Virus record (IMG/VR): IMGVR_UViG_3300045988_031383
Coordinates: 1 to 57,481 of that record
Length of the DNA: 57,481 nucleotides
From: a virus
Reading direction: 5' to 3' (one strand)
Notes under the pieces: generated by a model
Databases searched by the model: none
The model's input: only the letters and a program-made list of their open reading frames with translations
What the model was told of the DNA's origin: nothing
Shown: positions 20,984 to 57,481 of the stretch, piece by piece
How positions within the stretch are numbered: position 1 is the stretch's first letter
Layout: each line of letters starts with the position of its first letter
Program-made: the position numbers and the translations under genes

Positions 20984-21508
20984 ATGTTTAAACTAGAACG
21001 CTTCGAAGATGAAGAAGGGACTAAGGTAGCGGTTGTGGATAACAATCCATATTTCCGCTACGAATATCCTTATGTCCTAACGGAAGATATGAAGCAACAA
21101 ACTGACGAAGAGATTGGTAAGTACCTTATTCAAGATCTTCAATATCGTAATGAGCACACTTTGATGTCTACTTTGCTAGACGTTAACTTGCGCTCTCCAT
21201 TTATTTACGACAACCAATTTGCAACTCTTATCCAATACCTTAAAGAAGGAGAACTTGGTGAATCATATTTCCCAGGATCTCAAATCAAACTTCGTATTCC
21301 GAATTACGAAGCTGAGGGTTGGGAAGGTGACTTTGCTATGGTTACTGTGAATAAACCACTCACAATTCCTAAAGATACCACAGATATCTACAAACTGTTC
21401 TCAGATTATCATAAAAACGGTATCGTAGAAATTTTAAAGTGGCAAGACGTCGTTCACCTAAATCCGAACGACTTTAAGAAAGCAGCAACAGAAACTGGAG
21501 GAAACTAA
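20984..21508 (+). CDS. Hypothetical protein (tail fibre accessory?)
   Basis: 174-aa ORF, GAGG upstream, follows the fibre gene. Confidence 0.6.
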   Translation: MFKLERFEDEEGTKVAVVDNNPYFRYEYPYVLTEDMKQQTDEEIGKYLIQDLQYRNEHTLMSTLLDVNLRSPFIYDNQFATLIQYLKEGELGESYFPGSQIKLRIPNYEAEGWEGDFAMVTVNKPLTIPKDTTDIYKLFSDYHKNGIVEILKWQDVVHLNPNDFKKAATETGGN

Positions 21509-21510
21509 AT

Positions 21511-21912
21511 ATGGCATATACAGCAATTGACGACTCACAAAGCGTAATCAAACACTATGGTAAAAAAGGTATGAAATGGCGTAAAAACCGTGACCAAGCG
21601 GACATGCAAGATTATAATCCATACGACCTTGCATCGGGTCAAGATCTTCGTGACGATGACAAAGACTCTAGAGATATTGCCTATTGGAACCAACGTAAAG
21701 CACTTAACAAAGCTAGTGACAAAGCTACTCTTGAACGTATTTACGGTAAAGGTAAAGTTTCTGACAAACACCTTGCTAAATACCAAGAAGGTATTTATGG
21801 AAAACAAATCAAAGCATTAGCTTCGAAACGTCAAGAACGATATCGCAAACTCCGTGATCATAAGGTCAAAGTCGACAAGATGTCTTCAATGCGAACTAAA
21901 CCACAAATTTAA
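21511..21912 (+). CDS. Small basic protein with the N-terminal SQSVIxHYGKKGMKW motif (paralogue 1 of 3)
   Basis: GGAGGAAACTAAAT upstream. The N-terminus MAYTAIDDSQSVIKHYGKKGMKW is shared with the ORFs at 22661 and 53154. Confidence 0.7.
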   Translation: MAYTAIDDSQSVIKHYGKKGMKWRKNRDQADMQDYNPYDLASGQDLRDDDKDSRDIAYWNQRKALNKASDKATLERIYGKGKVSDKHLAKYQEGIYGKQIKALASKRQERYRKLRDHKVKVDKMSSMRTKPQI

Positions 21913-21926
21913 CGGAGGAACTTAAT

Positions 21927-22664
21927 ATGACAGTAAATCCCGCACTGATGCTCGCATGGATGATTGCTCGTGAAGGACGGGTGACATATTCCATGTTACG
22001 TCGTACAGGCCCAGACTCATTTGACTGCTCATCATCAATGTATTATGCTGGTGTAGCCGGTGGTATGAGCACTCTACCTTGGCCTTGCTCGACTGAGACA
22101 ATGCACGACTGGTTGTTACAAAATGGCTGGGTACTGTTGGCTGAAAACCAAGAAGCTGACGTACAAGCTGGTGATATTTTCATCTGGGGTCAAAAAGGAT
22201 ATTCTGCTGGGGCATTTGGTCACACAGGTATTTTCCTAGACTCAGAAGGAACTATTATCCACTGTAACTATGGATATAATGGTATTACTCGAAATAACCA
22301 CGATGAAATCTGGGGTTATAATGGTCAACCATATTTCTACTTCTATCGTTACAACGGTGGAGCTCGTGTCCCTAACCCTCCTCAACTTGAGATGGCTGAA
22401 AGCAGCTTCGAGCATGAGTTGAATGTTGGTACGCATCTGCCATCGAGTGAACAACCATATTACGAAGCGACAGTCACAGAGGACTACTGGGTCGAAGCTC
22501 AACCGTTCGCTGGTGCTGAAGAAAAAGAACTATTCAAGAAAGGTTCTCGTGTGCGTGTCTATGAGAAAGTGGACGGATATTCTCGGATTGGGTCTCCTCA
22601 ATCTGCTCAATGGATTGATGACAACTATCTAGACGACGCTGAGGATATGGTTGGTAAATTATGA
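21927..22664 (+). CDS. Endolysin: Amidase_5/CHAP-like Cys-His peptidoglycan hydrolase with a C-terminal SH3b-like domain
   Basis: ..REGRVTYSMLRRTGPDSFDCSSSMYYA...GDIFIWGQKGYSAGAFGHTGIFLDSEGTIIHCNYGYNGI.. matches the phage peptidoglycan-hydrolase (Amidase_5) pattern. The C-terminal ..GSRVRVYEKVDGYSRIG..AQWIDDNYL is SH3b-like. Confidence 0.85.
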   Translation: MTVNPALMLAWMIAREGRVTYSMLRRTGPDSFDCSSSMYYAGVAGGMSTLPWPCSTETMHDWLLQNGWVLLAENQEADVQAGDIFIWGQKGYSAGAFGHTGIFLDSEGTIIHCNYGYNGITRNNHDEIWGYNGQPYFYFYRYNGGARVPNPPQLEMAESSFEHELNVGTHLPSSEQPYYEATVTEDYWVEAQPFAGAEEKELFKKGSRVRVYEKVDGYSRIGSPQSAQWIDDNYLDDAEDMVGKL

Positions 22665-23086
22665 CATATACAGCGATTGATAATTCTCAAAGTGTTATTC
22701 AGCACTACGGGAAGAAAGGAATGAAATGGGGCGTAAGAAGTCGTCATGCTGACTTAAGAGCCAATCATGAGTCATATAAAAAGTTAAAGAAACAAGCCAA
22801 GGGAATTGTTAAGGATATTAACAAAGAACACAAAGGTGACGGAACCAACAATGGCGGTTATACTAAATGGCGTCTTAAAGAAAAAGTAAAGGGTGCTAAA
22901 AAGTATAACAAGGCCGAAGAGTTACGGCGAGTAGCTCAGGAACGTTATCAAAAGAATGGTGGTAAGACTGATAAGAAAATCAATAAGTATTTAAATAAAT
23001 ACAATAAGTTACAAAAAGAAATTTCTAATCATGACAACAACTATAATATGAGCCCTCGGGAATATTTCAACAGAAAAGGCAAATAG
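22661..23086 (+). CDS. Small basic protein with the HYGKKGMKWGVR motif (paralogue 2 of 3)
   Basis: ATGA overlap with the endolysin stop. The N-terminus is MTYTAIDNSQSVIQHYGKKGMKWGVRSRH and the remainder is Lys-rich. Confidence 0.7.
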   Translation: MTYTAIDNSQSVIQHYGKKGMKWGVRSRHADLRANHESYKKLKKQAKGIVKDINKEHKGDGTNNGGYTKWRLKEKVKGAKKYNKAEELRRVAQERYQKNGGKTDKKINKYLNKYNKLQKEISNHDNNYNMSPREYFNRKGK

Positions 23087-23090
23087 GATT

Positions 23091-23122
23091 GAAGCGGAGT
23101 CTACATGGCTCCCTTCTTTTTT
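23091..23122 (+). terminator. Intrinsic terminator ending the late operon
   Basis: GAAGCGGAG (23091-23099) pairs with CTCCCTTC (23109-23116) with one bulge and is followed by TTTTTT. Confidence 0.8.
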
Positions 23123-23130
23123 CATTTTCT

Positions 23131-23165
23131 AAAAATTCCCCGGGAGTGATTTTTAACCTAAATTC
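23131..23165 (+). promoter_or_regulatory. G/C box copy A (AAAATTCCCCGGGAGTGATTTTTAACCTAAATTC)
   Basis: Near-identical to 51271-51304 (about 30 matched positions with four 1-nt gaps, hand alignment). Weaker copy at 37750-37784. Lies at the start of the early block. Confidence 0.6.
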
Positions 23166-23188
23166 GCAGTTTCTACATGCCCTATAAT
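23165..23188 (+). promoter_or_regulatory. Early promoter P1 (CGCAG-N13-TATAAT)
   Basis: cgcagtttctacatgccctataat followed by GAAGAAAT..AAAGGAGG and ATG 23217. Confidence 0.75.
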
Positions 23189-23216
23189 GAAGAAATATTA
23201 AAGGAGGGTCATTACT

Positions 23217-23639
23217 ATGACTAACACAACAAAGGAATTTAATTTAAATCAACGAAACATGATTTCGCTAGCATTTATGTTTGACGACAATGAAATCAGA
23301 GACATGTTTGAATCTCATTTATGTTGGTTGTTGAATCATTCAGAATTCGACGATCATATTAAAGAGTATATACGTAATGTCTTTGATCGACTTGTAAAAG
23401 AAAGCAAACCGCTATTGGAATGTATTTCGCGCGATGAGGTAATTGAAGGAACTAAACGTTTGTGGAAGGTTAACGAACAATTAGTCTCCGTGAATATTAA
23501 GTTGAAAAAAGAGGTAATCGAAAAACTTGACAAACACAACTTAGAGATGATGGAAATGGTGATCGATGATATGGGGGACAAAGTTAGAGAGTTCAACAAA
23601 GGAATTGAAGAAATTATCAAATTCTACGAAAGCTTGTGA
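23217..23639 (+). CDS. Hypothetical early protein
   Basis: 140 aa, AAAGGAGGG upstream, bounded by promoter P1 and a terminator. Confidence 0.75.
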   Translation: MTNTTKEFNLNQRNMISLAFMFDDNEIRDMFESHLCWLLNHSEFDDHIKEYIRNVFDRLVKESKPLLECISRDEVIEGTKRLWKVNEQLVSVNIKLKKEVIEKLDKHNLEMMEMVIDDMGDKVREFNKGIEEIIKFYESL

Positions 23640-23645
23640 TTGATC

Positions 23646-23671
23646 GAGGGATTCATTCCCTCTTTCTTTTT
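23646..23671 (+). terminator. Intrinsic terminator
   Basis: GAGGGA ttcat TCCCTC followed by TTTCTTTTT. Confidence 0.85.
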
Positions 23672-23674
23672 GTC

Positions 23675-23698
23675 CGCAGAAATTACATACACTATAAT
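23675..23698 (+). promoter_or_regulatory. Early promoter P2 (CGCAG-N13-TATAAT) driving the tRNA-like locus
   Basis: cgcagaaattacatacactataat followed by GAAGAA. Confidence 0.75.
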
Positions 23699-23702
23699 GA
23701 AG

Positions 23703-23778
23703 AAGGTGCTTAGCTCGGTTGGGGTAGAGCAGCCAGAGAGATCTGGAAGGTCGCGGATTCGAATTCACGCACACCTTC
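23703..23778 (+). ncRNA. tRNA-like RNA with a non-canonical cloverleaf (pseudo-tRNA or tRNA mimic)
   Basis: Canonical D-arm GCTC GGTTGGGGTA GAGC, variable AGGTC, and T-arm GCGGA TTCGAAT TC(A)CGC. Acceptor AAGGTGC/ACACCTT has 6 bp plus a mismatch. The anticodon arm is CCAGA GAGA TCTGG (a 6-nt loop or a GNRA-capped hairpin), there is one extra linker nt, and no CCA. Confidence 0.5.
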
Positions 23779-23787
23779 ATCATATAG

Positions 23788-23863
23788 AAAATAGGTACCG
23801 CGAGAGGAAGCTGTAAATGCCGGTTCGATTCCGGATGGTTAAATTTATAGCCTATTTTTTTTT
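23788..23863 (+). ncRNA. Second structured element with a tRNA T-arm remnant, ending in a T10 run (probable end of the RNA locus)
   Basis: CCGG TTCGATT CCGG hairpin (23820-23834). It is enclosed by AAAATAGG (23788-95) pairing with CCTATTTT (23851-58), then TTTTT. Confidence 0.4.
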
Positions 23864-23887
23864 GAATTTCATATTAAGGAGGTAGTC

Positions 23888-24331
23888 ATGGCAGTAAGCA
23901 AGACTAGAAAGAAAAGTCCTCGTAGAAAACCACGAGGTGAAGTCAAACGTGTGCCGAAAGTATACTCAATTAAATACAAGTTTATTCGCGGCTCATACAA
24001 ACCAAAACTCGATGTTGTCGAGTTGTATATTAATATGCAGGTCAACGATGAGAATATTGTTGTGCATGGTAATGTAGATCCTGACAAGTCATATTTCGAT
24101 GGACTATATATCCACACAGCAAATCCTCATGCAGGACTTACAGCTCGTACGGCATGGATCAATAAACGTGATGCGCCTAATCTAACGATGGCTGTGAGAG
24201 CATTTGTTGATACTATTGGTGATTTGTTAGATGACAATACACCGGTAGAAGATCTTCCTTGTTTGAGTATTAATGACAAGGGAGTATATTTTGGAGAAGA
24301 TCGCTTATACGATATTGCCAAGGTATATTAA
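23888..24331 (+). CDS. Hypothetical early protein with a basic N-terminus
   Basis: TAAGGAGGTAGTC upstream of the ATG. 147 aa. Confidence 0.75.
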   Translation: MAVSKTRKKSPRRKPRGEVKRVPKVYSIKYKFIRGSYKPKLDVVELYINMQVNDENIVVHGNVDPDKSYFDGLYIHTANPHAGLTARTAWINKRDAPNLTMAVRAFVDTIGDLLDDNTPVEDLPCLSINDKGVYFGEDRLYDIAKVY

Positions 24332-24334
24332 CTC

Positions 24335-24358
24335 CGCAGAAATTACATACTCTATAAT
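24335..24358 (+). promoter_or_regulatory. Early promoter P3 (CGCAG-N13-TATAAT)
   Basis: cgcagaaattacatactctataat followed by GAAGAAATAATTTAAAGGAGG. Confidence 0.8.
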
Positions 24359-24387
24359 GAAGAAATAATTTAAAGGAGGATTTTAAC

Positions 24388-24585
24388 ATGGAAATCAACA
24401 AAGGAGTATTTGGTTTATACAATTACGAGGATACAGTACTTGAGGTTAAAGACCAAGAAAAATTTTCTAAGAAAATTTGGAAAGCGATTGGCCAAGGGGC
24501 TGTTAACACAGTTGTTATAAACGGAATGATCTATACAGGATTGGTATTGTTAGCATGCATCTTAAATAAAGATTCAGAAGAATAA
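24388..24585 (+). CDS. Small membrane protein (C-terminal TM helix)
   Basis: 65 aa, conserved leader and RBS, hydrophobic VVINGMIYTGLVLLACIL. Confidence 0.7.
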   Translation: MEINKGVFGLYNYEDTVLEVKDQEKFSKKIWKAIGQGAVNTVVINGMIYTGLVLLACILNKDSEE

Positions 24586-24616
24586 AAGTTGGGTTTACAC
24601 TCAGCTTTTATTTTTG
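24585..24616 (+). terminator. Intrinsic terminator
   Basis: AAAGTTGGGT ttac ACTCAGCTTT (10 bp including 2 G-U) followed by TATTTTT. Confidence 0.75.
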
Positions 24617-24641
24617 TCAAAAGAGAAAAGGAGAACAGAGA

Positions 24642-24923
24642 ATGGCAATTCAAAAATATGAAAACTTAAGTGACATGGACATGATTTACTTGTTAGTTGA
24701 GAGTACCGATATTTACTATAGGACAATTGGCGGTGATCAATCACAATGGGCCGGTATACGATGGACATTTAGACCAAACGATTGGTCAAGATGGCGGATT
24801 CGCGAGATCTATAGAAAGATCAACGATATTCGCAAGAAGTATAAATTGTTATCCGTTCCTACAGGAGCTTCTTTAGAGGACTGCTGGGAAGGTATGCCTC
24901 CGCAGAAATTACAAGTCATATAA
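24642..24923 (+). CDS. Hypothetical early protein
   Basis: AAAGGAGAACAGAGA upstream. 93 aa. Its last 8 codons are promoter P4. Confidence 0.7.
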   Translation: MAIQKYENLSDMDMIYLLVESTDIYYRTIGGDQSQWAGIRWTFRPNDWSRWRIREIYRKINDIRKKYKLLSVPTGASLEDCWEGMPPQKLQVI

Positions 24924-24924
24924 T
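24901..24924 (+). promoter_or_regulatory. Early promoter P4 (CGCAG-N13-TATAAT), embedded in the 3' end of the upstream ORF
   Basis: cgcagaaattacaagtcatataat followed by GAAGAAATAATTTAAAGGAGG, a leader identical to that of P3. Confidence 0.8.
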
Positions 24925-24953: not shown

Positions 24954-25136
24954 ATGTTACGGAAAGCATTACGATTTATTGGATTTTACTGCTTGGCTGG
25001 TTATGCCGTGTTGGAGGAAGCTCATATTGATAAGCTTGTTAAACAAGGATATGTGTCAGCAGATGAAGGGCCACATCGTGAGCGGCTAGATGTTGTACAG
25101 AAAGTTCTACGTAAATTAAAGAACGAAGGATATTAG
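24954..25136 (+). CDS. Hypothetical small early protein
   Basis: 60 aa, conserved leader and RBS, terminator immediately downstream. Confidence 0.7.
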   Translation: MLRKALRFIGFYCLAGYAVLEEAHIDKLVKQGYVSADEGPHRERLDVVQKVLRKLKNEGY

Positions 25137-25166
25137 ATGTTAGATTAACTAACATCTTTTCTTTTT
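25135..25166 (+). terminator. Intrinsic terminator
   Basis: AGATGTTAG attaa CTAACATCT (perfect 9 bp) followed by TTTCTTTTT. Confidence 0.9.
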
Positions 25167-25181
25167 GCCAAGGAGGATTAA

Positions 25182-25930: not shown

Positions 25931-25936
25931 AATACT

Positions 25937-26099
25937 ATAGGCCCGTTAAGAGCTGCACATTGAGGGACATAAGAAAAATTTTATTTAATCTACTATTTAC
26001 ATACACCTTGTCCCGTGTAACAAGCTACTTACGGAAATTTACGAAAGGAAAGCCTCTACACTGATACTATCATCTGTATGTAGCTTTTAGCGGGTCTAT
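25937..26099 (+). ncRNA. Candidate structured RNA (or MITE-like inverted-repeat element) closed by a 17-bp long-range helix
   Basis: ATAGGCCCGTTAAGAGC (25937-53) pairs with GCTTTTAGCGGGTCTAT (26083-99). There are 14 Watson-Crick pairs plus 3 G-T pairs, which are allowed only on the + strand. Inner helix GGGACA (25964-69)/TGTCCC (26009-14). No ORF on either strand. Confidence 0.4.
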
Positions 26100-26163
26100 T
26101 CAACTATCGATATATTTGATAGTTCCGAACTGCGCATAACATAATTTGTATAAAATGTGATCT

Positions 26164-26280
26164 CCTTTTTAATATTTTTTATTTCAACTTTACTTTTACA
26201 AAATACAAATTTATTGTCATGTAATGTTAAACCACATTATACGCAGTAACCAAATTCTTCCTACCTTTTTAATATTTTTT
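26164..26280. repeat. Two 17-bp direct repeats CCTTTTTAATATTTTTT exactly 100 bp apart (26164-80 and 26264-80)
   Basis: Read directly from the sequence. They lie in a 430-bp non-coding AT-rich region that also holds three TTATRCGYRG motifs (26130-39 inverted, 26237-46, 26318-27). Confidence 0.8.
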
Positions 26281-26378
26281 CATAATCCATAATACAATTA
26301 CATTAGGTACGAGTTTGTTATGCGTGGTTTGGAGCTATCAAATAGCTTTAACATTTTTATTTATTGGAGGATTATAGT

Positions 26379-27751: not shown

Positions 27752-28283
27752 ATTAGATGAGTTTGGTATTGTTCGGTATATTATAGACACTGGCGATAAA
27801 GTCGTGTCTATATTGCTTAACGATATTGCGGAAGACACAGGCGATAATGACGACACTCTTCTTTTAGTTAAGAGCGAACACATTCCATTTTATGATGAAC
27901 TATGGGACACCCCTCAATCCTCTGAGTATATACTAGTTAAAGGTATTAAATTCTATGTTAGTACATGGCACGCTTTGGGATATGGTATATATTTCATTGT
28001 TGATTTGTATACAACAGAACACGGAAACATTCTATATTTAGACTCGGATAGAAAAGATCGTCTATATGATATGGATTGGTTCATTGCAAATAAGTGCTTG
28101 GTTGGATGTGATGGTGGATTCCTCAAACGAAATTATAGAATGTATTCAAGATGTTGTATTAATTTCTATGGAGCCAAAAAGGTATTTCCAATCAATCATT
28201 CTATAGTCCACGATTGGTATGGATTTGAGAAGCATCTAGCTAACTCTTACTTAAATAGCTCGCAGAAAAAACAAGGCTCATAG
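27744..28283 (+). CDS. Hypothetical protein
   Basis: CAGGAGGAG upstream of ATG 27744. The longer track version (27513) overlaps the previous gene out of frame. Confidence 0.7.
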   Translation: MSELDEFGIVRYIIDTGDKVVSILLNDIAEDTGDNDDTLLLVKSEHIPFYDELWDTPQSSEYILVKGIKFYVSTWHALGYGIYFIVDLYTTEHGNILYLDSDRKDRLYDMDWFIANKCLVGCDGGFLKRNYRMYSRCCINFYGAKKVFPINHSIVHDWYGFEKHLANSYLNSSQKKQGS

Positions 28284-28303: not shown

Positions 28304-28621
28304 ATGAATAAACATTTTAATGATGTGGATAATTTAGCTTACGCTATCGCATTCGATGGCTTGACTGGAGAAATTGAGAAAACTAAAGTTGAACTGGCTT
28401 TAGCCGAGGACGAAGAAGCAGCGAAAGTTTTGGAAACTCGATTGGCACGCCTAATTGCTTTGAAGAATGAAGAAATCAAACATAAGGTGAAACCGATTGA
28501 CATTTTCAATACGATCACTGCCGGAGTCGCGGGTATTGCTGTACTCAGCTATGAGCAAACTGGAATTATTACCAGCAAGTTATGGAACATGACGGCTGGG
28601 GCTTTATTCCGCAAACGTTAA
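28304..28621 (+). CDS. Hypothetical protein with a C-proximal TM helix
   Basis: GAAAGGAAGG upstream. 105 aa. Confidence 0.7.
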   Translation: MNKHFNDVDNLAYAIAFDGLTGEIEKTKVELALAEDEEAAKVLETRLARLIALKNEEIKHKVKPIDIFNTITAGVAGIAVLSYEQTGIITSKLWNMTAGALFRKR

Positions 28622-28622
28622 T

Positions 28623-28653
28623 AAGGGAATTTAAACAATTCCCTTTCTTTTTT
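28623..28653 (+). terminator. Intrinsic terminator
   Basis: AAGGGAATT taaac AATTCCCTT (perfect 9 bp) followed by TCTTTTTT. Confidence 0.9.
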
Positions 28654-28664
28654 GGAGGTGAGTG

Positions 28665-30362: not shown

Positions 30363-31823
30363 ATGAATAAAAAAGCAATCGTATTTACAGGAACTATCGC
30401 ACTTGCCCTTTTGACAGCACCAAGCGTATTAGCTAACGAAGCCGATACTGTTGTCACCAAACAAGATACTAATATCACAGTGCAAAATCCTTCAGTTGAA
30501 GTAACAACATCTGATGATACTATTTACGCTGATGTAGATGTCAAAGTTAATGATATCCAAATCCCAGATGATATTTCAATCAATAAAGGAGACAGTATCA
30601 CTGTTGGATTGCCGCAAGAGCTTAAATTGGTAAATAACTACACATTCCCAGTTAACAATAACGAGGGAACAGAAGTTGGTACAGCCACTGCGAACAAAGA
30701 TAATAACGAAGTTACAACTGTGTTCAATGACTACTTTGAATCGCACCCTCTAAATAAAACATTCTCTCTTGATATCAAAACTCAATGGAATGTCGAAAAG
30801 GTTGCTGAGAATCAACAAGTTGCCCTTGATTTCAACGGTCGTAAGGTTGAAACTACTACTGGTAAAACTGGTGTTATCGGTAAAGATGAAACTCTTATGA
30901 AATGGGGAGGCGAGGACGCCGAACACCCAGGCGAAATCGTATGGGCAATGCGTGTTAACTACGCCAAGAAAGACCTAGTCAATGTCAAAGTTGCTGATAC
31001 TTGGGACGAAAACCAAGAATATGTTAAGGATTCGTTCAAAATGGTGTCTGTTGAATCAAATAACCCTTGGAAAGAAAAAGAATCTGAAGCAACTAAGATT
31101 GCTCCTGTATTCCATACTAATGGTTTCACTTGGTCTGCAGATAAACTCTCGGATCAGTTGTATATTAGCTATCGTACAAAGGTTATCAAACAAGCTGAGC
31201 GTTATTTGAATAGCGTGGTTCTTAGTGCTGACAACTTCAATTCACAATATCGTGATGTACCTTATCAATTTGTAACCGGCAGCGGTAAGGCAGATGGAGA
31301 AAACAAACCTAAGGTAGAGGATAAGAAGCCAGAGGAAAAACCAAAAGAAGATCCTAAACCTAAGGAAGAAACTCCTAAAGAAGATCCTAAAGAAGATCCT
31401 AAAGAAGATCCTAAGAAGCCAGAAGATAAGCCTAAAGAAGATCCTAAAGAAGATCCTAAGAAGCCAGAAGATAAGCCTAAAGAGGAACCTAAACCTAAAG
31501 AAGAAACTCCTAAAGAGGAACCTAAAGAGGATCCTAAGAAGCCAGAAGATAAGCCTAAAGAGGATCCTAAGAAGCCAGAAGATAAGCCTAAGGAAACTCC
31601 TAAACCTCAAACACCACCTGCACCTAAGCAAGTTGTAATTCGTAAATACGAAGAAAAGAAACCTGTTGTGCGCAATATCCCGGCCAAAGTAATTGAAGCA
31701 ACCAAACAAGTTGAAACTCATACTTTGCCAAATACTGGATCTAGCCTAGAGCTTGCCCTCATTACTACTGGTGTGTTCTTGGCATCTGCTGCGGTAGCTA
31801 TCAAACGAAAGGAAACTAAATAA
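30363..31823 (+). CDS. LPXTG cell-wall-anchored surface protein with a Cna/collagen-binding-like adhesin domain
   Basis: Signal peptide MNKKAIVFTGTIALALLTAPSVLANE. ..GDSITVGLPQELKL..TATANKDNNEVTTVFNDYFE.. resembles MSCRAMM A-domains. Also has a Pro/Lys/Glu/Asp-rich wall-spanning repeat, LPNTG (31725-31739), a hydrophobic stretch and a KRKETK tail. Confidence 0.9.
   Translation: MNKKAIVFTGTIALALLTAPSVLANEADTVVTKQDTNITVQNPSVEVTTSDDTIYADVDVKVNDIQIPDDISINKGDSITVGLPQELKLVNNYTFPVNNNEGTEVGTATANKDNNEVTTVFNDYFESHPLNKTFSLDIKTQWNVEKVAENQQVALDFNGRKVETTTGKTGVIGKDETLMKWGGEDAEHPGEIVWAMRVNYAKKDLVNVKVADTWDENQEYVKDSFKMVSVESNNPWKEKESEATKIAPVFHTNGFTWSADKLSDQLYISYRTKVIKQAERYLNSVVLSADNFNSQYRDVPYQFVTGSGKADGENKPKVEDKKPEEKPKEDPKPKEETPKEDPKEDPKEDPKKPEDKPKEDPKEDPKKPEDKPKEEPKPKEETPKEEPKEDPKKPEDKPKEDPKKPEDKPKETPKPQTPPAPKQVVIRKYEEKKPVVRNIPAKVIEATKQVETHTLPNTGSSLELALITTGVFLASAAVAIKRKETK
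31306..31628 (+). repeat. Tandem Pro-rich coding repeats (KPEDKPKEDPKEDPK-type)
   Basis: gatcctaagaagccagaagataagcctaaaga recurs four times, with shorter gaagatcctaaa units between. Confidence 0.9.
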
Positions 31824-32188: not shown

Positions 32189-32509
32189 ATGTCAAAAGAA
32201 ACTGTTTCAAACAAAATCGAAGAAGTTAAGGACGAAGCAACTGAAGTTGTTGAGAACGTCCAAGAAGAAGTTAAAGAAGTTGTTGAAGGGCAACCTGAAA
32301 CTAAGGTCGATGTTGTCGAACAAAAAGAAACCATCTTTAAAAAAGGTGAAAAAATTGTTCGTAAATACCGTCCTGTGTTTAAGAAAGCTCTGATCACAAC
32401 CGGATTGATTATTCTTGGTGGACTCGCATACGGATATGTGAAGAAATCCAATACTGAAGAAGATGTTGTTGAAGGTGAATTTGAAGGCATTTCATATGAC
32501 AACGAATAA
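32189..32509 (+). CDS. Acidic protein with a C-proximal TM helix
   Basis: AAAGGAGGACTATAAA upstream. 106 aa. Confidence 0.75.
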   Translation: MSKETVSNKIEEVKDEATEVVENVQEEVKEVVEGQPETKVDVVEQKETIFKKGEKIVRKYRPVFKKALITTGLIILGGLAYGYVKKSNTEEDVVEGEFEGISYDNE

Positions 32510-32520
32510 AATCGTTTAAG

Positions 32521-32557
32521 AGAATACGGGATATTACATCTCGTATTCTTTTTTTTT
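32521..32557 (+). terminator. Intrinsic terminator
   Basis: AGAATACGGGA tattaca TCTCGTATTCT (11 bp) followed by T8. Confidence 0.9.
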
Positions 32558-32580
32558 GAATTTAGAAAGGAGAACTACTA

Positions 32581-32766
32581 GTGAAAACATTTATTGGCGC
32601 TGTATGCATGTGCTTTATCGGAGCGTTATTTAGCGCTGCACTATATACTACGTTTGTTTATTTCTTTAACGCCGACCCACGATTGGCTGTGTGTTTAACA
32701 GGAGCTTTACAGACGATTGCTATGTACTTATGGGGGTATACAGCCGGAAAAACTAGTAAAGAATAA
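32581..32766 (+). CDS. Small two-TM membrane protein (holin-like topology, GTG start)
   Basis: AAAGGAGAACTACTA upstream of the GTG. 61 aa with two hydrophobic helices and a charged C-terminus. Confidence 0.6.
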   Translation: MKTFIGAVCMCFIGALFSAALYTTFVYFFNADPRLAVCLTGALQTIAMYLWGYTAGKTSKE

Positions 32767-45512: not shown

Positions 45513-45536
45513 CGCAGAAATTACATGGCACATAAT
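45513..45536 (+). promoter_or_regulatory. Promoter P6 (CGCAG-N13-CATAAT)
   Basis: cgcagaaattacatggcacataat, preceded by the inverted repeat GGGTC attttg GACCC. Confidence 0.6.
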
Positions 45537-45537
45537 A

Positions 45538-45586
45538 GAGAGGGAAGTGGAAAAAACTCGAATTTTTCACTCCTCTCATTGTTTTT
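45538..45586 (+). terminator. Promoter-proximal hairpin plus T-tract (leader terminator / attenuator, or short RNA)
   Basis: GAGAGG..AGTG.AAAAA (45538-55) pairs with TTTTTCACTCCTCTC (45563-77) with two bulges, followed by ATTGTTTTT. Confidence 0.55.
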
Positions 45587-45620
45587 GAGTCACGCACGTC
45601 ATTTTAGAAAGGACATTACT

Positions 45621-48145: not shown

Positions 48146-50791
48146 ATGAATCTTGAAGATGCATATAATGATTTTCTAGAACATAGAGGAACTCCTCACC
48201 AAGGATCTATTCCACATAGTGGACGATTTGCTTGGGGTTCGGGAGAGAATTCATATCAACGTGCGACTTCCTGGTCAGATGTCGTTGCTAAATACCGTAA
48301 GAGCGGATTAACTGATACTCAAATTTCTATGAAGCTTGGTATCACAACGACCGAATTCCGTTCTCGTAATAATATTGCCAAGCACGAAATTCGTAAATAC
48401 AACATTAGTCGTATTCAAGAATTATCTGCAAAAGGCATGACTTCTATTGAGATTTCTCGGGCAACTGGTATTCCAGAATCTACAGTTCGTATGAATTTGG
48501 ATGCTAAAGTTCGTCATAATGTAAATCGAATGGAAGAAATTAAGACTGATATTAAGGGATTGATTGAAAAGAATCCATATCTTGACGTTGGTCTTGGTGC
48601 AGCTCAACAATTAGGAGTAAATGAGAATACTCTTAAACGTGCGGTACAACAATTAGAATCCGAAGGATATCACAAACATACAGTATATGTTAAGAATGCT
48701 ACAAATGATGATCACTGGGTCGAAATGAAAGTTCTTACAAAAGAATCAGATCCAAATGTTGTTCGTGAACATAAGCATGAAATCAAACCACCATTTATTT
48801 CTGAGACTGATGATGGAAAAAGTGTATTAGGATTACGTCCAATTGAACATGTTGATTGGAAACGTGTAGGAATTCGATATGCTGAACAAGGTGGTACGGA
48901 TAAAGATGGTGTAATGGAATTACGTCCAGGAGTAAAAGATCTTGATCTTGGTAAATCCCGTTATGCTCAAGTTCGTATTGGTGTAAATGGTACGCATTAT
49001 CTTAAAGGTATGGCTGTTTATGGAGATCCAAAAGATTTTCCAAAAGGCGTCGATATTATTTTCAATACCAATAAACATAAAGGTACTGCAAAAGAAGATG
49101 TCTTGAAGAAATTAAAGGACGATCCAGATAATCCATTCGGTGCAACAATTAAAGTTGGTGGACAAAAAGGTGCTATCAACAAAGTAAATGAAGAAGGTGA
49201 CTGGGCTAGCTGGTCTAAAACATTATCTTCTCAATTTGTTTCCAAACAACCACCAGCTTTGGTTAAAGGTCGTATTGATGAAACATATAAAAAGCTACAG
49301 AAAGAGTTTGATGAGATTTCTAATCTAACAAATCCTGTAGTTAAACGTGTAATGATGCAGGATTTTGCTGATGGTCTTACAACCAAACGGCATAATCTTA
49401 AATTGACTGGGTTCGATAGAATGAAAGGTCAAGTATTATTACCTTTATCTGGAATTAAAGCTAACGAAATCTATGCTCCTAATTTTAAAAACGGTGAGAA
49501 AGTAGTTCTTGTTCGATATCCTCATGGTGGTATTTTCGAATTACCAGAATTAACTGTTAATAATAAATTAGGAAACACTGCAGCTAAATTCATGAAGGGC
49601 GCAAAAGATGCAGTCGGAATTGATTCGTCTGTTGCATCTAAATTATCTGGTGCTGATTTCGATGGTGACTCAGTTATGGTTATTCCTAATAATAAAAACG
49701 GAATTAAAACAAGTCGTTCATTAAAAGAATTAAAGAACTTTGATACGAACGATTATTATTCTCCAGATAAAAACATTTTAAATCGTAATTCAAAAGGTGA
49801 CTGGACAATTAAACAGAAAACGATGGGCGAAGTTTCAAATCTTATTACCGATATGACTTTGAAAGGAGCATCAAATAGTGAAATTGCTAGAGCCGTAAAG
49901 CATTCGATGGTCGTCATCGATGCTGAAAAACATAATTTAGATTATAAAAGATCTGAAAGAGAAAACGGTATTCCAGAATTACGAAAAAGATATCAGATGC
50001 ATTACGATGTTATTACTGGTACTACAAAAATGGGAGCCTCAACTCTTATTTCTAGATCAAAAACAGATCATAGAGAAACAGAGACCTGGGAAAAACCACG
50101 TACTGCAGAAGAACTAGCCGCAAATCCTAGATTGAAACCTACTGTTAAGAAAACTAAAACAGTTTCTACAGATAGTGTAATTGAACTAGTTGATGATGCT
50201 AAGAAACTAGGTTCTGGTACTCCTATTGAAAATATGTATGGAGATTATGTAAATGCTCTTGGTAAAATGAGGGATAAAGCTAATAAAATTGTAGAGACAT
50301 CTCCTAATCTTAAGCTCAGCAAAGAGGCAAGAGTTAAGTATAAGGATCAAGTTGAGTCTCTACAACACAAGCTTAATACTGCCCTTATGAACTCTCCTAA
50401 AGAACGTCAAGCTCAGCTCATAGCTAACAAAGCTATTGCTGATAAACGTACTCCTGAGATGGGTAAAGAACAACTTAAGAAGCTCAAACAACAGGCTATT
50501 GCAGCAGCCCGTCTAAAGACTGGTGCTGATGGAGCTGGTACTCGTATCAACATAGACAATGATGAGTGGCAAGCTATCCAGTCTGGTGCTGTAAGTACTA
50601 AGATGCTTACTGATGTACTACGCTTTGCTGATAGTGATCGTGTTAAGCAACTGGCTACACCTCGTAAAGAGAAGGCTATTAGTCTTGGTACAGCTAGCAG
50701 AGCTAGAGCTATGCTTAAGAGTGGTCACACCTATGCTGAAGTAGCGTCTGCTCTAGGTATCAGTGTGTCTACTGTGCAAGACCTATCATAG
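48146..50791 (+). CDS. Candidate single-subunit two-barrel (double-psi beta-barrel, YonO-like) RNA polymerase with N- and C-terminal HTH domains
   Basis: Beta-like motif KVGGQKGAINKVN (aa 336-348). Beta-prime-like motifs VRYPHGGIFELP (aa 456-467) and GADFDGDSVMVIP (aa 502-514, the DxDGD metal loop). HTH-like segments at aa ~55-75, ~98-116, ~148-170 and ~860-880. Confidence 0.6.
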   Translation: MNLEDAYNDFLEHRGTPHQGSIPHSGRFAWGSGENSYQRATSWSDVVAKYRKSGLTDTQISMKLGITTTEFRSRNNIAKHEIRKYNISRIQELSAKGMTSIEISRATGIPESTVRMNLDAKVRHNVNRMEEIKTDIKGLIEKNPYLDVGLGAAQQLGVNENTLKRAVQQLESEGYHKHTVYVKNATNDDHWVEMKVLTKESDPNVVREHKHEIKPPFISETDDGKSVLGLRPIEHVDWKRVGIRYAEQGGTDKDGVMELRPGVKDLDLGKSRYAQVRIGVNGTHYLKGMAVYGDPKDFPKGVDIIFNTNKHKGTAKEDVLKKLKDDPDNPFGATIKVGGQKGAINKVNEEGDWASWSKTLSSQFVSKQPPALVKGRIDETYKKLQKEFDEISNLTNPVVKRVMMQDFADGLTTKRHNLKLTGFDRMKGQVLLPLSGIKANEIYAPNFKNGEKVVLVRYPHGGIFELPELTVNNKLGNTAAKFMKGAKDAVGIDSSVASKLSGADFDGDSVMVIPNNKNGIKTSRSLKELKNFDTNDYYSPDKNILNRNSKGDWTIKQKTMGEVSNLITDMTLKGASNSEIARAVKHSMVVIDAEKHNLDYKRSERENGIPELRKRYQMHYDVITGTTKMGASTLISRSKTDHRETETWEKPRTAEELAANPRLKPTVKKTKTVSTDSVIELVDDAKKLGSGTPIENMYGDYVNALGKMRDKANKIVETSPNLKLSKEARVKYKDQVESLQHKLNTALMNSPKERQAQLIANKAIADKRTPEMGKEQLKKLKQQAIAAARLKTGADGAGTRINIDNDEWQAIQSGAVSTKMLTDVLRFADSDRVKQLATPRKEKAISLGTASRARAMLKSGHTYAEVASALGISVSTVQDLS

Positions 50792-51208: not shown

Positions 51209-51270
51209 CGACACCCCATAGGGGGAGGGTCGTGGGATCTCCCCACCCCTCTGCATCGCCGCACCTCTCC
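51209..51270. other. G/C-rich island in an AT-rich genome: candidate cos/packaging site
   Basis: gacaccccatagggggagggtcgtgggatctccccacccctctgcatcgccgcacctctcc. It contains the bulged hairpin GAGGG-tc-GTGGG atctc CCCACCCCTC, lies in a 165-bp non-coding gap upstream of the holin/TerS/HNH/TerL block, and an HNH gene is nearby. Confidence 0.4.
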
Positions 51271-51321
51271 AAAATTTCCCCGGAGTGGTTTTTGACCCTA
51301 ATTCAGGGGTCAAAGTATAGG
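51271..51321 (+). promoter_or_regulatory. G/C box copy B plus inverted repeat TTTGACCC-N8-GGGGTCAAA and TTGACC-N18-TATAGG: candidate late promoter/operator
   Basis: aaaatttccccggagtggtttttgaccctaattc matches 23131-23165. The inverted repeat spans 51291-51314. It lies 28 nt upstream of the first late ORF. Confidence 0.5.
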
Positions 51322-51348: not shown

Positions 51349-51780
51349 ATGCACACAGAAGTACATGACCACTTCGTTGGTCTACTAAAGTGGCTACTAT
51401 CTCCTGAAGTTCTTTCTCAGATCGGACTTTATGTCGGTATAGGAGCTTCAATTGTTGGTTTTTCAACTCGTGTGTTCAAGAAACTCTGGAACAAACTCGA
51501 AGAAAAGCAAAACCAAGAGATCGAAGGTATCAAAAATTCCATTGAGGCATTAGCTATTAGCATGGAAGAGATGAGAAAGACCCAAGAGCGAGACTTCTTG
51601 AGGTTACAAATCATCACCGGCATCCATTCCGGACGATTGTCGAACAACGAAGTTCTGACATTGTATGACCAGTACGTCCAAAACGGCGGAAACTCGTATG
51701 TTAGTCGGGTAGTGAATGATTATGTGGAAGAAGAAAAATCAAGGGAAGAGGTAAAACGTAATGTTAGAAAACGTACTTAA
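51349..51780 (+). CDS. Membrane-anchored coiled-coil protein (lysis-associated?)
   Basis: AAAGGAGACTAGAACT upstream of ATG 51349. TM segment IGLYVGIGASIVGFS. The track's longer version (51232) runs through the non-coding GC island. Confidence 0.7.
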   Translation: MHTEVHDHFVGLLKWLLSPEVLSQIGLYVGIGASIVGFSTRVFKKLWNKLEEKQNQEIEGIKNSIEALAISMEEMRKTQERDFLRLQIITGIHSGRLSNNEVLTLYDQYVQNGGNSYVSRVVNDYVEEEKSREEVKRNVRKRT

Positions 51781-52105
51781 TTTAATTACGTTAGTTGTCA
51801 TGGTAGCACCATTGGTTGTTGAAGGGGTTAAATACCTCGGAGCTATCACGCACAACAAAAAAGTTATTACGCTGGCCGAACGAGCAATGATCATCGTATC
51901 ATCACTCGACCGCTTGGACATTGCTAACGACAGTAAGAAACAAGCAGCTCTAGACAAGCTACTTCATTTCGCTAATGAAACACGTACTCAATTAACTACC
52001 GCTCAAGCGGAAGACTATATCGAGAACGCGGTTTTAACGTTACGCAGACTTCAGGAAAGTGCTAGCAATTCGGAGGTATCTACAAATGCCCCGGAGAAGA
52101 AATGA
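51761..52105 (+). CDS. Putative holin, LL-H-like (one N-terminal TM helix and a charged C-terminus)
   Basis: MLENVLNLITLVVMVAPLVVEGV.. followed by ..KKQAALDKLLHFANE..LTTAQAEDYIENAV.., the layout of Lactobacillus phage LL-H-type holins. Confidence 0.5.
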   Translation: MLENVLNLITLVVMVAPLVVEGVKYLGAITHNKKVITLAERAMIIVSSLDRLDIANDSKKQAALDKLLHFANETRTQLTTAQAEDYIENAVLTLRRLQESASNSEVSTNAPEKK

Positions 52106-56663: not shown

Positions 56664-57481
56664 ATGGGAAAACATCCTAAGTATGATTTCGCGGGTTATG
56701 TAACCCGTAATGACATGCGTTGTACAGACGGTGTCACCATTCGTCATGGAGCATTTGCTGAGAACGATGGTAAAAAGGTTCCTCTGGTTTGGTCACACGA
56801 CCCGAGCACACCTGAAAATATCATCGGACATGTGCTATTGCATCATGCGGATGAGGGTGTTTATGGCGAAGGGTATTTCAACAATACTCAAAAAGCTATC
56901 AACGCCAAAGAACTCGTACAACATGGTGATATCATGTGTATGTCAATCGGAGCGAATCGTATTAAACGTACTCCGCAAAATGACGTTATTCATGGTAACA
57001 TCTATGAAGTATCGCTTGTGCTCGCAGGAGCTAATCCTGGAGCCGTAATTACAGAAGTGCTACAGCACTCTGATAATCCAGACGAAGGGGAAAGTATCGT
57101 AATGGAAAGTAACGAACTTATTCATTCAGCTAGCAATGTGTTGCTTGGCGATGAAACACGAGTTAGTGTATTCGATCGTATTCAACACGCTGAAGAAGGT
57201 ACTGAATCTGCGGTTCTTGATGAAGTATTGGGAACTCTTAACGAAGATCAACAAGAAGCAGTATCTATCTTGACTGAAGCGGCCGCTAATGCAGCTCTTG
57301 AAGCGCATGAAGCAGCTATTGATAAAGAATTTGAAAACGCTGTTGACGCTCGAGTAAATGAAATTCTTGATGAACTCGCAGCAGAAGCCGACGACGAAGA
57401 TAAAGAATCTGAAGAAATCGAACAATCCGACAAGGGAGGAACTTTGATGCACTATAACGCATTCGAACAAACATCTGCTAA
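56664..57481 (+). CDS. HK97-family (S78) prohead protease plus an acidic scaffold-like linker. This is the N-terminal part of the fusion with the major capsid protein. It has no stop in the window and continues in frame at nt 1.
   Basis: ..KKVPLVWSHDPSTPENIIGHVLL..GVYGEGYF..HGDIMCMSIGA.. gives the His and Ser of the S78 fold. This is followed by ~110 aa of Glu/Asp/Ala-rich helix. My hand translation to 57481 found no stop codon. Confidence 0.85.
   Translation, partial: MGKHPKYDFAGYVTRNDMRCTDGVTIRHGAFAENDGKKVPLVWSHDPSTPENIIGHVLLHHADEGVYGEGYFNNTQKAINAKELVQHGDIMCMSIGANRIKRTPQNDVIHGNIYEVSLVLAGANPGAVITEVLQHSDNPDEGESIVMESNELIHSASNVLLGDETRVSVFDRIQHAEEGTESAVLDEVLGTLNEDQQEAVSILTEAAANAALEAHEAAIDKEFENAVDARVNEILDELAAEADDEDKESEEIEQSDKGGTLMHYNAFEQTSA
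57427..57481. repeat. Second copy of the 55-nt terminal overlap (= 1-55)
   Basis: Exact identity with the window start. Confidence 0.95.

Follow-up and report, generated by a model that had tools for sequence, protein, structure and literature searches.

A repeated tripartite signal accompanies an RdRP-like helix-turn-helix protein in phages of two bacterial phyla: candidate promoters for a phage-encoded RNA polymerase

Promoters of the T7, T3 and SP6 type carry a consensus of about 23 nt that is read by a phage single-subunit RNA polymerase. N4 gp50 and gp66 of the crAss-like phage phi14:2, a protein resembling RNA-dependent RNA polymerases (RdRPs), are virion RNA polymerases, and the early promoters of N4 are DNA hairpins. 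T4 middle promoters combine a MotA box (TGCTTtA) at -30 with a sigma-70 -10 in a case of sigma appropriation, and the PeSL cassettes of T4-type phages rely on ordinary sigma-70 early promoters. The siphovirus SPbeta, which has a Gram-positive host, encodes YonO, a protein of about 100 kDa in one chain that has a DxDGD catalytic loop and transcribes phage genes; its promoter recognition and its need for a specificity factor were explicitly left open (PMC5467207), an instance of the wider question of how minimal single-chain, two-barrel RNA polymerases find their promoters. Here we analyze a phage genome of 57,481 nucleotides (IMG/VR virus record IMGVR_UViG_3300045988_031383, positions 1 to 57,481; hereafter the window) in which seven copies of a promoter-like signal occur together with a gene for an 881-aa helix-turn-helix (HTH) protein. 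We propose, from comparative sequence evidence, that the seven sites are probably promoters of the phage's own single-chain RNA polymerase, the 881-aa protein.

Two parts of this system have been reported before. In Gordonia phage Vardy (cluster DJ), a 50-bp intergenic motif containing TATAAT precedes small membrane-protein genes in five copies (PMC9671010); it is evidently the same element, and that account concerns one genome only, without a tie to a polymerase-like gene or to phages of other hosts. The assignment of the protein as a polymerase by HHpred was independently reported, the protein being the signature of a supercluster that unites actinobacteriophages with Lactococcus phage 1706 and Faecalibacterium phages; that preprint is silent on promoters and transcription (bioRxiv 10.1101/842583). 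A paper on Arthrobacter clusters AM and AU is equally silent on both, and full-text literature searches returned nothing that ties the motif to the polymerase or reports its conservation across phyla.

The original prediction described seven copies of CGCAG followed at a fixed distance by a TATAAT-like hexamer, with no canonical -35, and its account of the letters proved accurate. The copies lie at 23165, 23675, 24335, 24901, 28261, 32136 and 45513 (P1 to P7), the spacing from CGCAG to the hexamer is exactly 13 nt in 7/7 copies, the hexamer is TATAAT in five of them, CATAAT at 45513 and CATAGT at 28261, and five copies have CGCAG(A/G)AATTACA in common. An ACA at a fixed position, which had not been singled out, is likewise present in all seven, and the full element spans 24 bases, CGCAG-N5-ACA-N5-YATART. 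The nearest isolate-type record, Caudovirus D_HF5_2C (human saliva), is syntenic with the window at 65-76% DNA identity across conserved genes. The copies, with the open reading frames (ORFs) that they are predicted to drive, and the protein proposed to read them are as follows.

P1, 23165..23188, + strand: CGCAGTTTCTACATGCCCTATAAT; 29.5 bits; first copy past the late-operon terminator; would drive a 140-aa ORF, 23217-23639.
P2, 23675..23698, + strand: would drive a tRNA-like non-coding RNA that begins 6 nt past the hexamer; likewise arranged in D_HF5_2C.
P3, 24335..24358, + strand: 31.7 bits; would drive a 65-aa ORF, 24388-24585.
P4, 24901..24924, + strand: 26.7 bits; would drive a 60-aa ORF, 24954-25136; the stop codon of the upstream 93-aa ORF lies inside the hexamer.
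P5, 28261..28284, + strand: AAAAACA / CATAGT variant; 22.5 bits; would drive a 105-aa ORF, 28304-28621.
P6, 32136..32159, + strand: 32.5 bits; would drive a 106-aa ORF, 32189-32509.
P7, 45513..45536, + strand: CATAAT-AGAGAGG type; upstream of the annealing-protein, helicase, endonuclease, exonuclease and putative polymerase genes.
881-aa protein, 48146..50791, + strand: HTH / RdRP-like core / HTH; proposed polymerase reading the motif.

The copies stand far above chance. The exact pattern CGCAG-N13-TATAAT occurs five times in the window against 0.06 expected from shuffles. When a position weight matrix was built from six other phages alone, leaving the window out, the seven sites scored 22.5-32.5 bits and the next best position on either strand 11.9 bits; the best score per shuffled genome (n = 100) averaged 13.0 and reached 18.1 at most. 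A matrix built from the sites of the window, D_HF5_2C and Arthrobacter phage Circum gave 28-41 bits for the seven copies and no more than 12 for all else in the window. Matrix scans of the window showed no promoter belonging to the late genes themselves, and no second promoter class for these genes was detected, there being no other repeat family, matrix hit or conserved sigma-A-like site near the putative cohesive-end site (cos). The seven sites are the sole recognisable candidate promoters in the whole genome, in which no canonical sigma-A promoter was detected.

All seven copies lie on the + strand, on which every gene is also encoded. Six of the seven are placed 15-30 nt 5' of a strong Shine-Dalgarno sequence, and the remaining copy is 6 nt 5' of the tRNA-like RNA; a hairpin with a T-run terminator immediately precedes four copies, and three hexamers contain the stop codon of the gene before them. 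Strand, distance to the ribosome-binding site (RBS) and terminators fit the cassette layout of promoter, gene and terminator that had been predicted. The "almost identical leader" ascribed to four copies applies in full to those at 24335 and 24901, which are identical, and less well to the copies at 23165, which is merely close, and 32136, which is looser. The T-rich spacer of P1 is also found in the orthologous first copy of D_HF5_2C, and the AAAAACA spacer of P5 is the norm in other clades.

A megablast search of the early region against isolated phages gave no match, and relatives were reachable via the 881-aa protein only. The weight-matrix search of related phage genomes that had been suggested at the outset found the motif in every examined relative that encodes an 881-aa homologue: the signal is present in 7/7 such genomes, in 5-11 copies per relative, with identical spacing and on the coding strand only, and the arrays occupy the matching genome region in every relative compared. 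D_HF5_2C has seven sites by pattern (0.05 expected) and nine by matrix. Nine copies of CGCGTAAATTACA-N5-TATAAT are found in Circum, 9-11 copies of CGCAnnnATTACA-N5-TATAAT-GAGACCCCTAC in Gordonia phage Secretariat (cluster DJ), six copies of CGCAAGTTTTACA-N5-TATAGT-GAGACCCCTAC in Streptomyces phage Scap1, nine copies of CACATGTTTTACA-N5-TATAGT-AGAAAG in Lactococcus phage 1706 and five copies of CGCGAAAAATACA-N5-CTTTAT-GG in Faecalibacterium phage FP_oengus. The putative polymerases of the relatives are 38-47% identical to that of the window, and the hosts of the motif-bearing phages belong to two phyla that differ in G+C content and in their own promoters. Within the hypervariable region, the motif repeats are the sole islands of identity between the window and D_HF5_2C. 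In the Scap1 and Secretariat copies, the 11 nt past the hexamer (GAGACCCCTAC) and a GAAAGGA RBS are nearly invariant across clusters and hosts, which suggests that the initial transcript, or 5' leader, is itself under selection.

The association extends to metagenomic sequences. Among 76 IMG/VR loci selected solely for encoding the polymerase (546 kb in total), 50 have a coding-strand copy at a fixed distance 5' of the polymerase gene, either about 0.9 or about 2.6 kb; the nearer copies precede the endonuclease, exonuclease and polymerase genes, and the more distant ones precede the annealing protein and helicase as well. Over the 546 kb, 59 matches lie on the + strand and one on the - strand. 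A pattern scan of IMG/VR retrieved at least 120 short stretches; when 14 window proteins were taken as a sample, homologues of them turned up in 70 of these stretches.

The 881-aa protein (48146-50791) carries three HTH regions in its N-terminal 180 residues and, at the C-terminus, a further HTH matching sigma-70 region 4 (Sigma70_r4). The core between them has the motifs YAQVRI..GTHYLKGMA and SGADFDGD (residues 501-508), the latter with the DxDGD metal-binding loop; neither motif varies among 34 homologues, whose identity to the window protein is 43-83%. The Pfam RdRP family PF05183 matches over the SGADFDGD stretch (E 1.7e-4; 20.9 bits, cut-off 23.8), PF05183 and Sigma70_r4 are both matched by 5/5 diverse homologues (best PF05183 E 7e-5), and comparison with PHROG 4291, "RNA-dependent RNA polymerase", gives E 4e-302. 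An AF2 model from a 34-sequence alignment (predicted local distance difference test, pLDDT, 69; predicted TM-score, pTM, 0.40) has as its best Foldseek match in the PDB Arabidopsis RDR2 (7eu1_M; probability 0.92, E 5e-3), with low TM-scores; the next matches are mostly beta'/Rpb1 largest subunits of bacterial, eukaryotic and viral RNA polymerases, each with E >0.1 and individually non-significant. An earlier model, from 18 sequences of two clades, was discarded as unusable (pLDDT 50.7). Searches of PDB sequences by phmmer and by profile returned HTH matches only, together with a weak match to AR9 beta' at the catalytic loop (E ~0.9). A search of protein representatives gave, among the matches listed, full-length family members only and no bridge to other polymerase families. 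The family is very large: clustering at 50% identity (E <1e-30) yields 1,176 clusters or more, and 250 isolated phages have a member, such as gp98 of Circum. These features point to a two-barrel RNA polymerase, an activity that is predicted here. Pfam and PHROG scans of about 60 other ORFs detected no sigma factor, no other DNA-binding protein and no MotA, AsiA or other co-activator family, so that the 881-aa protein is the sole identifiable transcription or DNA-binding protein among the ORFs scanned.

A conservation profile of 56 sites from the seven phages locates the information in three blocks, namely CGC, TTACA, and the hexamer with the two purines that follow it. Because the block centers are about 10 bp, or one helical turn, apart, the three blocks lie on one face of the helix. 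The putative promoter consensus is CGC-N7-TTACA-N5-YWTWAT-purine-purine. We consider the phage polymerase a likelier reader of this consensus than the host enzyme because the signal accompanies the polymerase gene in phages of two phyla. In the proposed mechanism, the HTH domains of the polymerase would read CGC and TTACA in successive major grooves on one helix face, the A/T-rich hexamer would melt, and the conserved G/A that adjoins it downstream would be where RNA starts, in the manner of T7 and SP6 promoters. Each promoter would serve a single small gene, expressed at a high level, or the tRNA-like RNA; the terminator closing each cassette would be leaky, and read-through would feed the genes downstream. 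P7 would drive the recombination and nuclease genes and the gene for the polymerase itself. It would probably also drive the packaging, structural and lysis genes after cohesive-end joining, because the genome is unidirectional and no terminator follows: the scan of the window found no + strand terminator between P7 and cos or the late genes. The polymerase gene lies at the extreme right end, adjoining cos; in relatives with mapped ends the genome terminus likewise comes a few hundred bases past the polymerase gene, and many metagenomic contigs stop there too.

In a sigma-70 -10 element, sigma region 2 captures A at position 2 (A-11) and T at position 6, and conservation is weak at position 3. 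Over the 56 sites, the information is 2.0 bits at position 3 and 1.9 at position 6 but only 1.3 at position 2. The family hexamer is YWTWAT, with A at position 2 in some clades and T in others (CTTTAT and TTTTAT in the FP_oengus clade), and CTTTAT, TTTTAT, TATTAT and TCTAAT are common variants in relatives. The profile is the reverse of that of sigma-70 and therefore argues against a sigma-A promoter. A matrix blind to the hexamer gave 34 minus-strand matches and was too noisy for hexamer frequencies, so it was used qualitatively only. Neither of the other sigma-A contacts is apparent: no -35 related to TTGACA lies 16-18 bp 5' of the hexamer (TTGTCC, AACTCC, GCCTCC, TAATCC and GGACCC are found there, and the -35-like hexamers are no better than chance), and a TGn extended -10 is present in 0/7 copies, both as originally predicted. 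The number of sigma-70-like sites in the window equals or falls short of what shuffling predicts, and D_HF5_2C conserves none of them. The two bases right after the hexamer are conserved purines, which suggests that RNA starts directly after it. In the actinophage copies, purines occupy positions 1-4 past the hexamer and C occupies positions 6-8; C residues are poor start sites for sigma-70-type enzymes.

The original prediction allowed for host RNA polymerase helped by a bound factor or for a phage-specified polymerase. Its view of the sites as promoter-like and ill-suited to sigma-A stands, and the comparative evidence favors the second option, with the 881-aa protein as the polymerase; a host holoenzyme with a helper, starting RNA 6-8 nt downstream of the hexamer, is unsupported. 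In this rival scheme, to which we give a minor share of the probability, sigma-A holoenzyme would use the hexamer as its -10, and a phage protein on CGC...TTACA, most likely the 881-aa protein through its HTHs, would replace the -35 contact, an arrangement that would correspond, in a Gram-positive host, to MotA/AsiA appropriation in T4 or to class II activation. It would account for the perfect TATAAT at 5/7 sites, for an upstream block 13 nt from the hexamer at the place of the MotA box, for the HTH resembling sigma-70 region 4 and for the bacterial-type terminators after the cassettes, and a phage-encoded activator would co-vary with the motif across hosts just as a polymerase would. However, it fits poorly with a hexamer in which position 2, the A-11 equivalent, varies while position 3 is invariant across the family, with the placement of C and purines in the actinophage copies and with the failure to detect any MotA, AsiA or other co-activator family; moreover, a DFDGD loop and both barrel motifs that are invariant in 34 homologues would not be expected of a mere DNA-binding factor.

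It is less probable still, and in our estimate improbable, that unaided host sigma-A acts at "-10-only" early promoters, the upstream block being an operator or UP-like element and the 881-aa polymerase transcribing something else, such as the late genes from another promoter that has escaped recognition. The TATAAT hexamers do stand ahead of early-looking small genes, YonO offers the precedent of a single late promoter in SPbeta (PMC5467207), and the genome announcement for Vardy read the motif as a sigma-70 -10 (PMC9671010). Nevertheless, Firmicute sigma-A promoters normally need a -35 or TGn, both of which are missing, and host enzymes leave unexplained both the CGC and ACA held at fixed spacing across two host phyla and the hexamer variants that lack A at position 2; in addition, neither another repeated motif nor another promoter candidate was found ahead of the late genes. 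That the repeats are primarily boundaries of mobile cassettes (PeSL-like recombination hot spots) or RNA-processing sites is very improbable, since their position at terminator-gene junctions of the hypervariable region, as its only islands of identity with D_HF5_2C, is set against the promoter traits of strict strand bias, fixed RBS distance and an A/T-rich hexamer followed by purines, one copy precedes a non-coding RNA and another stands at a fixed distance 5' of the polymerase module in 50 loci, and shuffling of cassettes is more readily seen as following from repeated promoters than as competing with them.

Several observations weigh against the preferred reading, in which the phage polymerase reads the seven sites. 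Five of the seven hexamers in the window are the exact sigma-A -10 consensus TATAAT, the cassettes end in bacterial-type hairpin and U-tract terminators, two sigma-A-like matches in an A/T-rich gap (25931-26378) make a possible entry point for the host polymerase, and the sole published comment on the motif takes it for a sigma-70 -10 (Vardy, PMC9671010). As to the protein, its RdRP Pfam matches stay below the gathering score (20.9 bits, where 23.8 are required), the AF2 model has medium quality and gives 0 Foldseek matches at E 0.001 or better, and hhalign detected no similarity to YonO (probability 0.4-0.5%, with profiles of 5 and 34 sequences). There is also a bootstrapping problem: because the polymerase gene sits behind its own type of promoter, the first enzyme needs an outside source, which would be either injected enzyme or a first transcript made by the host polymerase. 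Finally, some relatives are temperate. FP_oengus has an integrase (146-1387), and some polymerase homologues lie on contigs of 200-340 kb, from which we conclude that the family includes temperate phages and prophages of gut Clostridia; these would need another source of enzyme at induction, since injected enzyme could not be used then.

One solution to the bootstrapping problem would be for the first polymerase molecules to enter with the DNA as a virion protein. The 1706 homologue, ORF75, was annotated as a "structural protein" by its depositors (EU081845), and the ReqiPoco6 record quotes the same. We hold delivery in the virion to be a tentative proposal, with chances slightly below even. 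We are more doubtful of the most far-reaching version, in which a self-sufficient, virion-packaged two-barrel polymerase with sigma-like HTH modules would transcribe the whole genome without host RNA polymerase throughout a very large group of Firmicutes and Actinobacteria siphoviruses, the late genes being switched on only via cos joining.

The cassettes, their terminators and the RNA elements between them comprise the following features.

23096..23122, + strand: intrinsic terminator right before P1, closing the long late operon of structural and lysis genes.
23646..23672, + strand: terminator of the P1 cassette; its T-run abuts P2.
23702..23778, + strand: tRNA-like RNA from P2, with D arm, T arm and acceptor stem; a GAGA tetraloop replaces the anticodon loop.
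24586..24620, + strand: hairpin (10-bp stem, two G-U pairs) and U-tract following the P3 gene; read from the sequence, uncalled by the scanner.
25135..25167, + strand: terminator of the P4 cassette.
28623..28655, + strand: terminator of the P5 cassette.
32518..32562, + strand: terminator of the P6 cassette, with a stem of 15 bp; the next gene, which lacks a promoter, begins 29 nt downstream.
45537..45587, + strand: P7 leader hairpin and U-tract, beginning at the first base past the P7 hexamer.

The gene at 32581 needs read-through, because a terminator directly precedes it and leaves no room for a promoter; since read-through past the cassette terminators is required, these would act as attenuators. 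The P7 subtype, CATAAT-AGAGAGG with a leader hairpin, is common to D_HF5_2C and other relatives. A 5-bp stem of this leader is kept in four relatives with one compensatory change, which is weak evidence. The hairpin may be an attenuator or a 5' stabilizer, and it could gate expression of the polymerase and the late genes.

The tRNA-like RNA has a homologue in D_HF5_2C (27879-27958) that scores 28.9 bits against the Rfam tRNA family (gathering score 29) and in which an oversized loop replaces the anticodon loop. ARAGORN calls no tRNA-like RNA in the window, D_HF5_2C or 1706, and Rfam at gathering thresholds reports no RNA genes in the window. In both the window and D_HF5_2C the element sits 5' of a homologous 147-aa gene (PHROG 1494), and in the window a second T-arm-like piece follows at 23793-23862. 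A similar-looking element, judged by eye only, lies 3' of a motif copy in phage 1706 (~31098-31170). The RNA may be a decoy or a processing signal.

The window begins and ends with an exact repeat (positions 1-55 and 57427-57481) and is therefore a circularly closed assembly of a complete phage genome of about 57.4 kb. The phage is a relative of Lactococcus phage 1706. All plausible genes lie on the + strand. The cos-like block is followed by the genes for holin, connector, large terminase, portal, capsid and tail proteins and for an Amidase_5 lysin. Next in order are the strong terminator at 23096, a hypervariable block of small genes and then the replication genes, including one for a 1273-aa primase-polymerase. 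The last module consists of the annealing protein, helicase, endonuclease, exonuclease, 881-aa protein and a 124-aa ORF, after which cos is reached again.

51215-51300: cos-like GC-rich block (CCCCATAGGGGGAGGGTCG...TGCATCGCCGCACC) that separates the 124-aa ORF from the first late gene; conserved in D_HF5_2C; probably cos.

A stretch of about 38 nt just 3' of this block (AAAATTTCCCCGGAGTGGTTTTTGACCCTAATTC, 51265-51303) recurs at 23125-23164, directly upstream of P1. The A/T-rich gap mentioned above (25931-26378) is a non-coding stretch of 450 nt without a counterpart in D_HF5_2C. It holds the repeat CCTTTTTAATATTTTTT at 26164 and 26265 and the sigma-A-like matches TTGATA-18-CATAAT (26116) and TTAATA-18-TACAAT (26269), and it could be a replication origin or an entry point for the host polymerase.

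A 486-aa protein of the early region (30363-31823) combines Big_8 and collagen-binding domains with an extended PKEDPK-type repeat, encoded by nine tandem DNA copies (31308-31615), and looks like a Gram-positive surface adhesin. The Amidase_5/SH3b lysin is flanked by two genes with paralogous N-termini (21507-21579 and 22657-22729; 78% DNA identity; Pfam DUF7211). A separate holin (Holin_LLH) is encoded at 51761-52105, near cos and distant from the lysin. Amidase_5 lysins are typical of Streptococcus phages, and the lysin hints at a Streptococcus-like oral host.

The evidence supports a phage-polymerase-specific promoter for an uncharacterised family of HTH-fused two-barrel polymerases. The analysis proposes a link between motif and polymerase and gives a precise consensus for a very large uncharacterised family that has HTH modules and a catalytic core in one chain. 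If the proposal is correct, hundreds of proteins now named "helix-turn-helix DNA-binding proteins" would be re-annotated as RNA polymerases, the unidirectional, cassette-like genome layout would be explained, and a compact orthogonal polymerase-promoter pair already working in two bacterial phyla would be at hand. Experimental access is offered by SEA-PHAGES isolates on easily grown Arthrobacter, Gordonia and Streptomyces and by dairy Lactococcus phages.

Among the systems described at the outset, PeSL cassettes share with the window repeated terminator-promoter junctions between small hypervariable early genes, at which islands of identity could mediate shuffling; the promoters of the window are, however, probably not of the ordinary sigma-70 type. 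As at T4 middle promoters, a box replaces the -35, 12-13 nt 5' of a TATAAT-like hexamer (13 nt here). Unlike those promoters, the window has another box sequence and a second block, TTACA, its phage has no MotA or AsiA that we could find, and the conservation of the hexamer does not fit sigma-70.

With YonO the proposed polymerase shares the single chain, the DxDGD loop and a Gram-positive siphovirus setting. The two differ in that they have no profile similarity, YonO showing no match in that comparison to the HTH regions of the 881-aa profile, and in that YonO uses one late promoter; the YonO-dependent start maps to the non-coding gap between yonN and yonK in SPbeta. The motif matrix found no match in the SPbeta stretch comprising yonO, the late promoter region and that gap. 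An 11-nt match to the motif core in the gap (GAAATTACATACC, ~15150, minus strand) has no hexamer at the right spacing and is probably due to chance.

Like N4 gp50 and phi14:2 gp66, the window polymerase is phage-encoded, and the proposal for it likewise includes packaging, injection and transcription of early genes at promoters of a non-sigma type; with phi14:2 gp66 it further shares a relation to the RdRPs of RNA interference. Those two enzymes are much larger and lack the HTH-core-HTH layout, and, unlike in N4 and the crAss-like phages, virion association here comes solely from the GenBank label of 1706 ORF75.

The closest likeness in design is to T7, T3 and SP6, where a long, near-invariant, phage-specific sequence is likewise repeated on the coding strand of a unidirectional genome, terminators are leaky and read through, and the signal tracks the polymerase gene, not the host. 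As in T7 and SP6, a TATA-like A/T element abuts a purine-rich start (SP6 ...CACTATAGAAGAG; window ...ACACTATAATGAAGAA; 1706 ...ACTATAGTAGAAAG), the start being predicted here, and the sequence likeness to the SP6 promoter is probably convergent. Unlike T7, whose enzyme is of the Pol I type, the window would pair an RdRP-like two-barrel polymerase with fused HTHs with a tripartite signal that has the periodicity of one helical turn.

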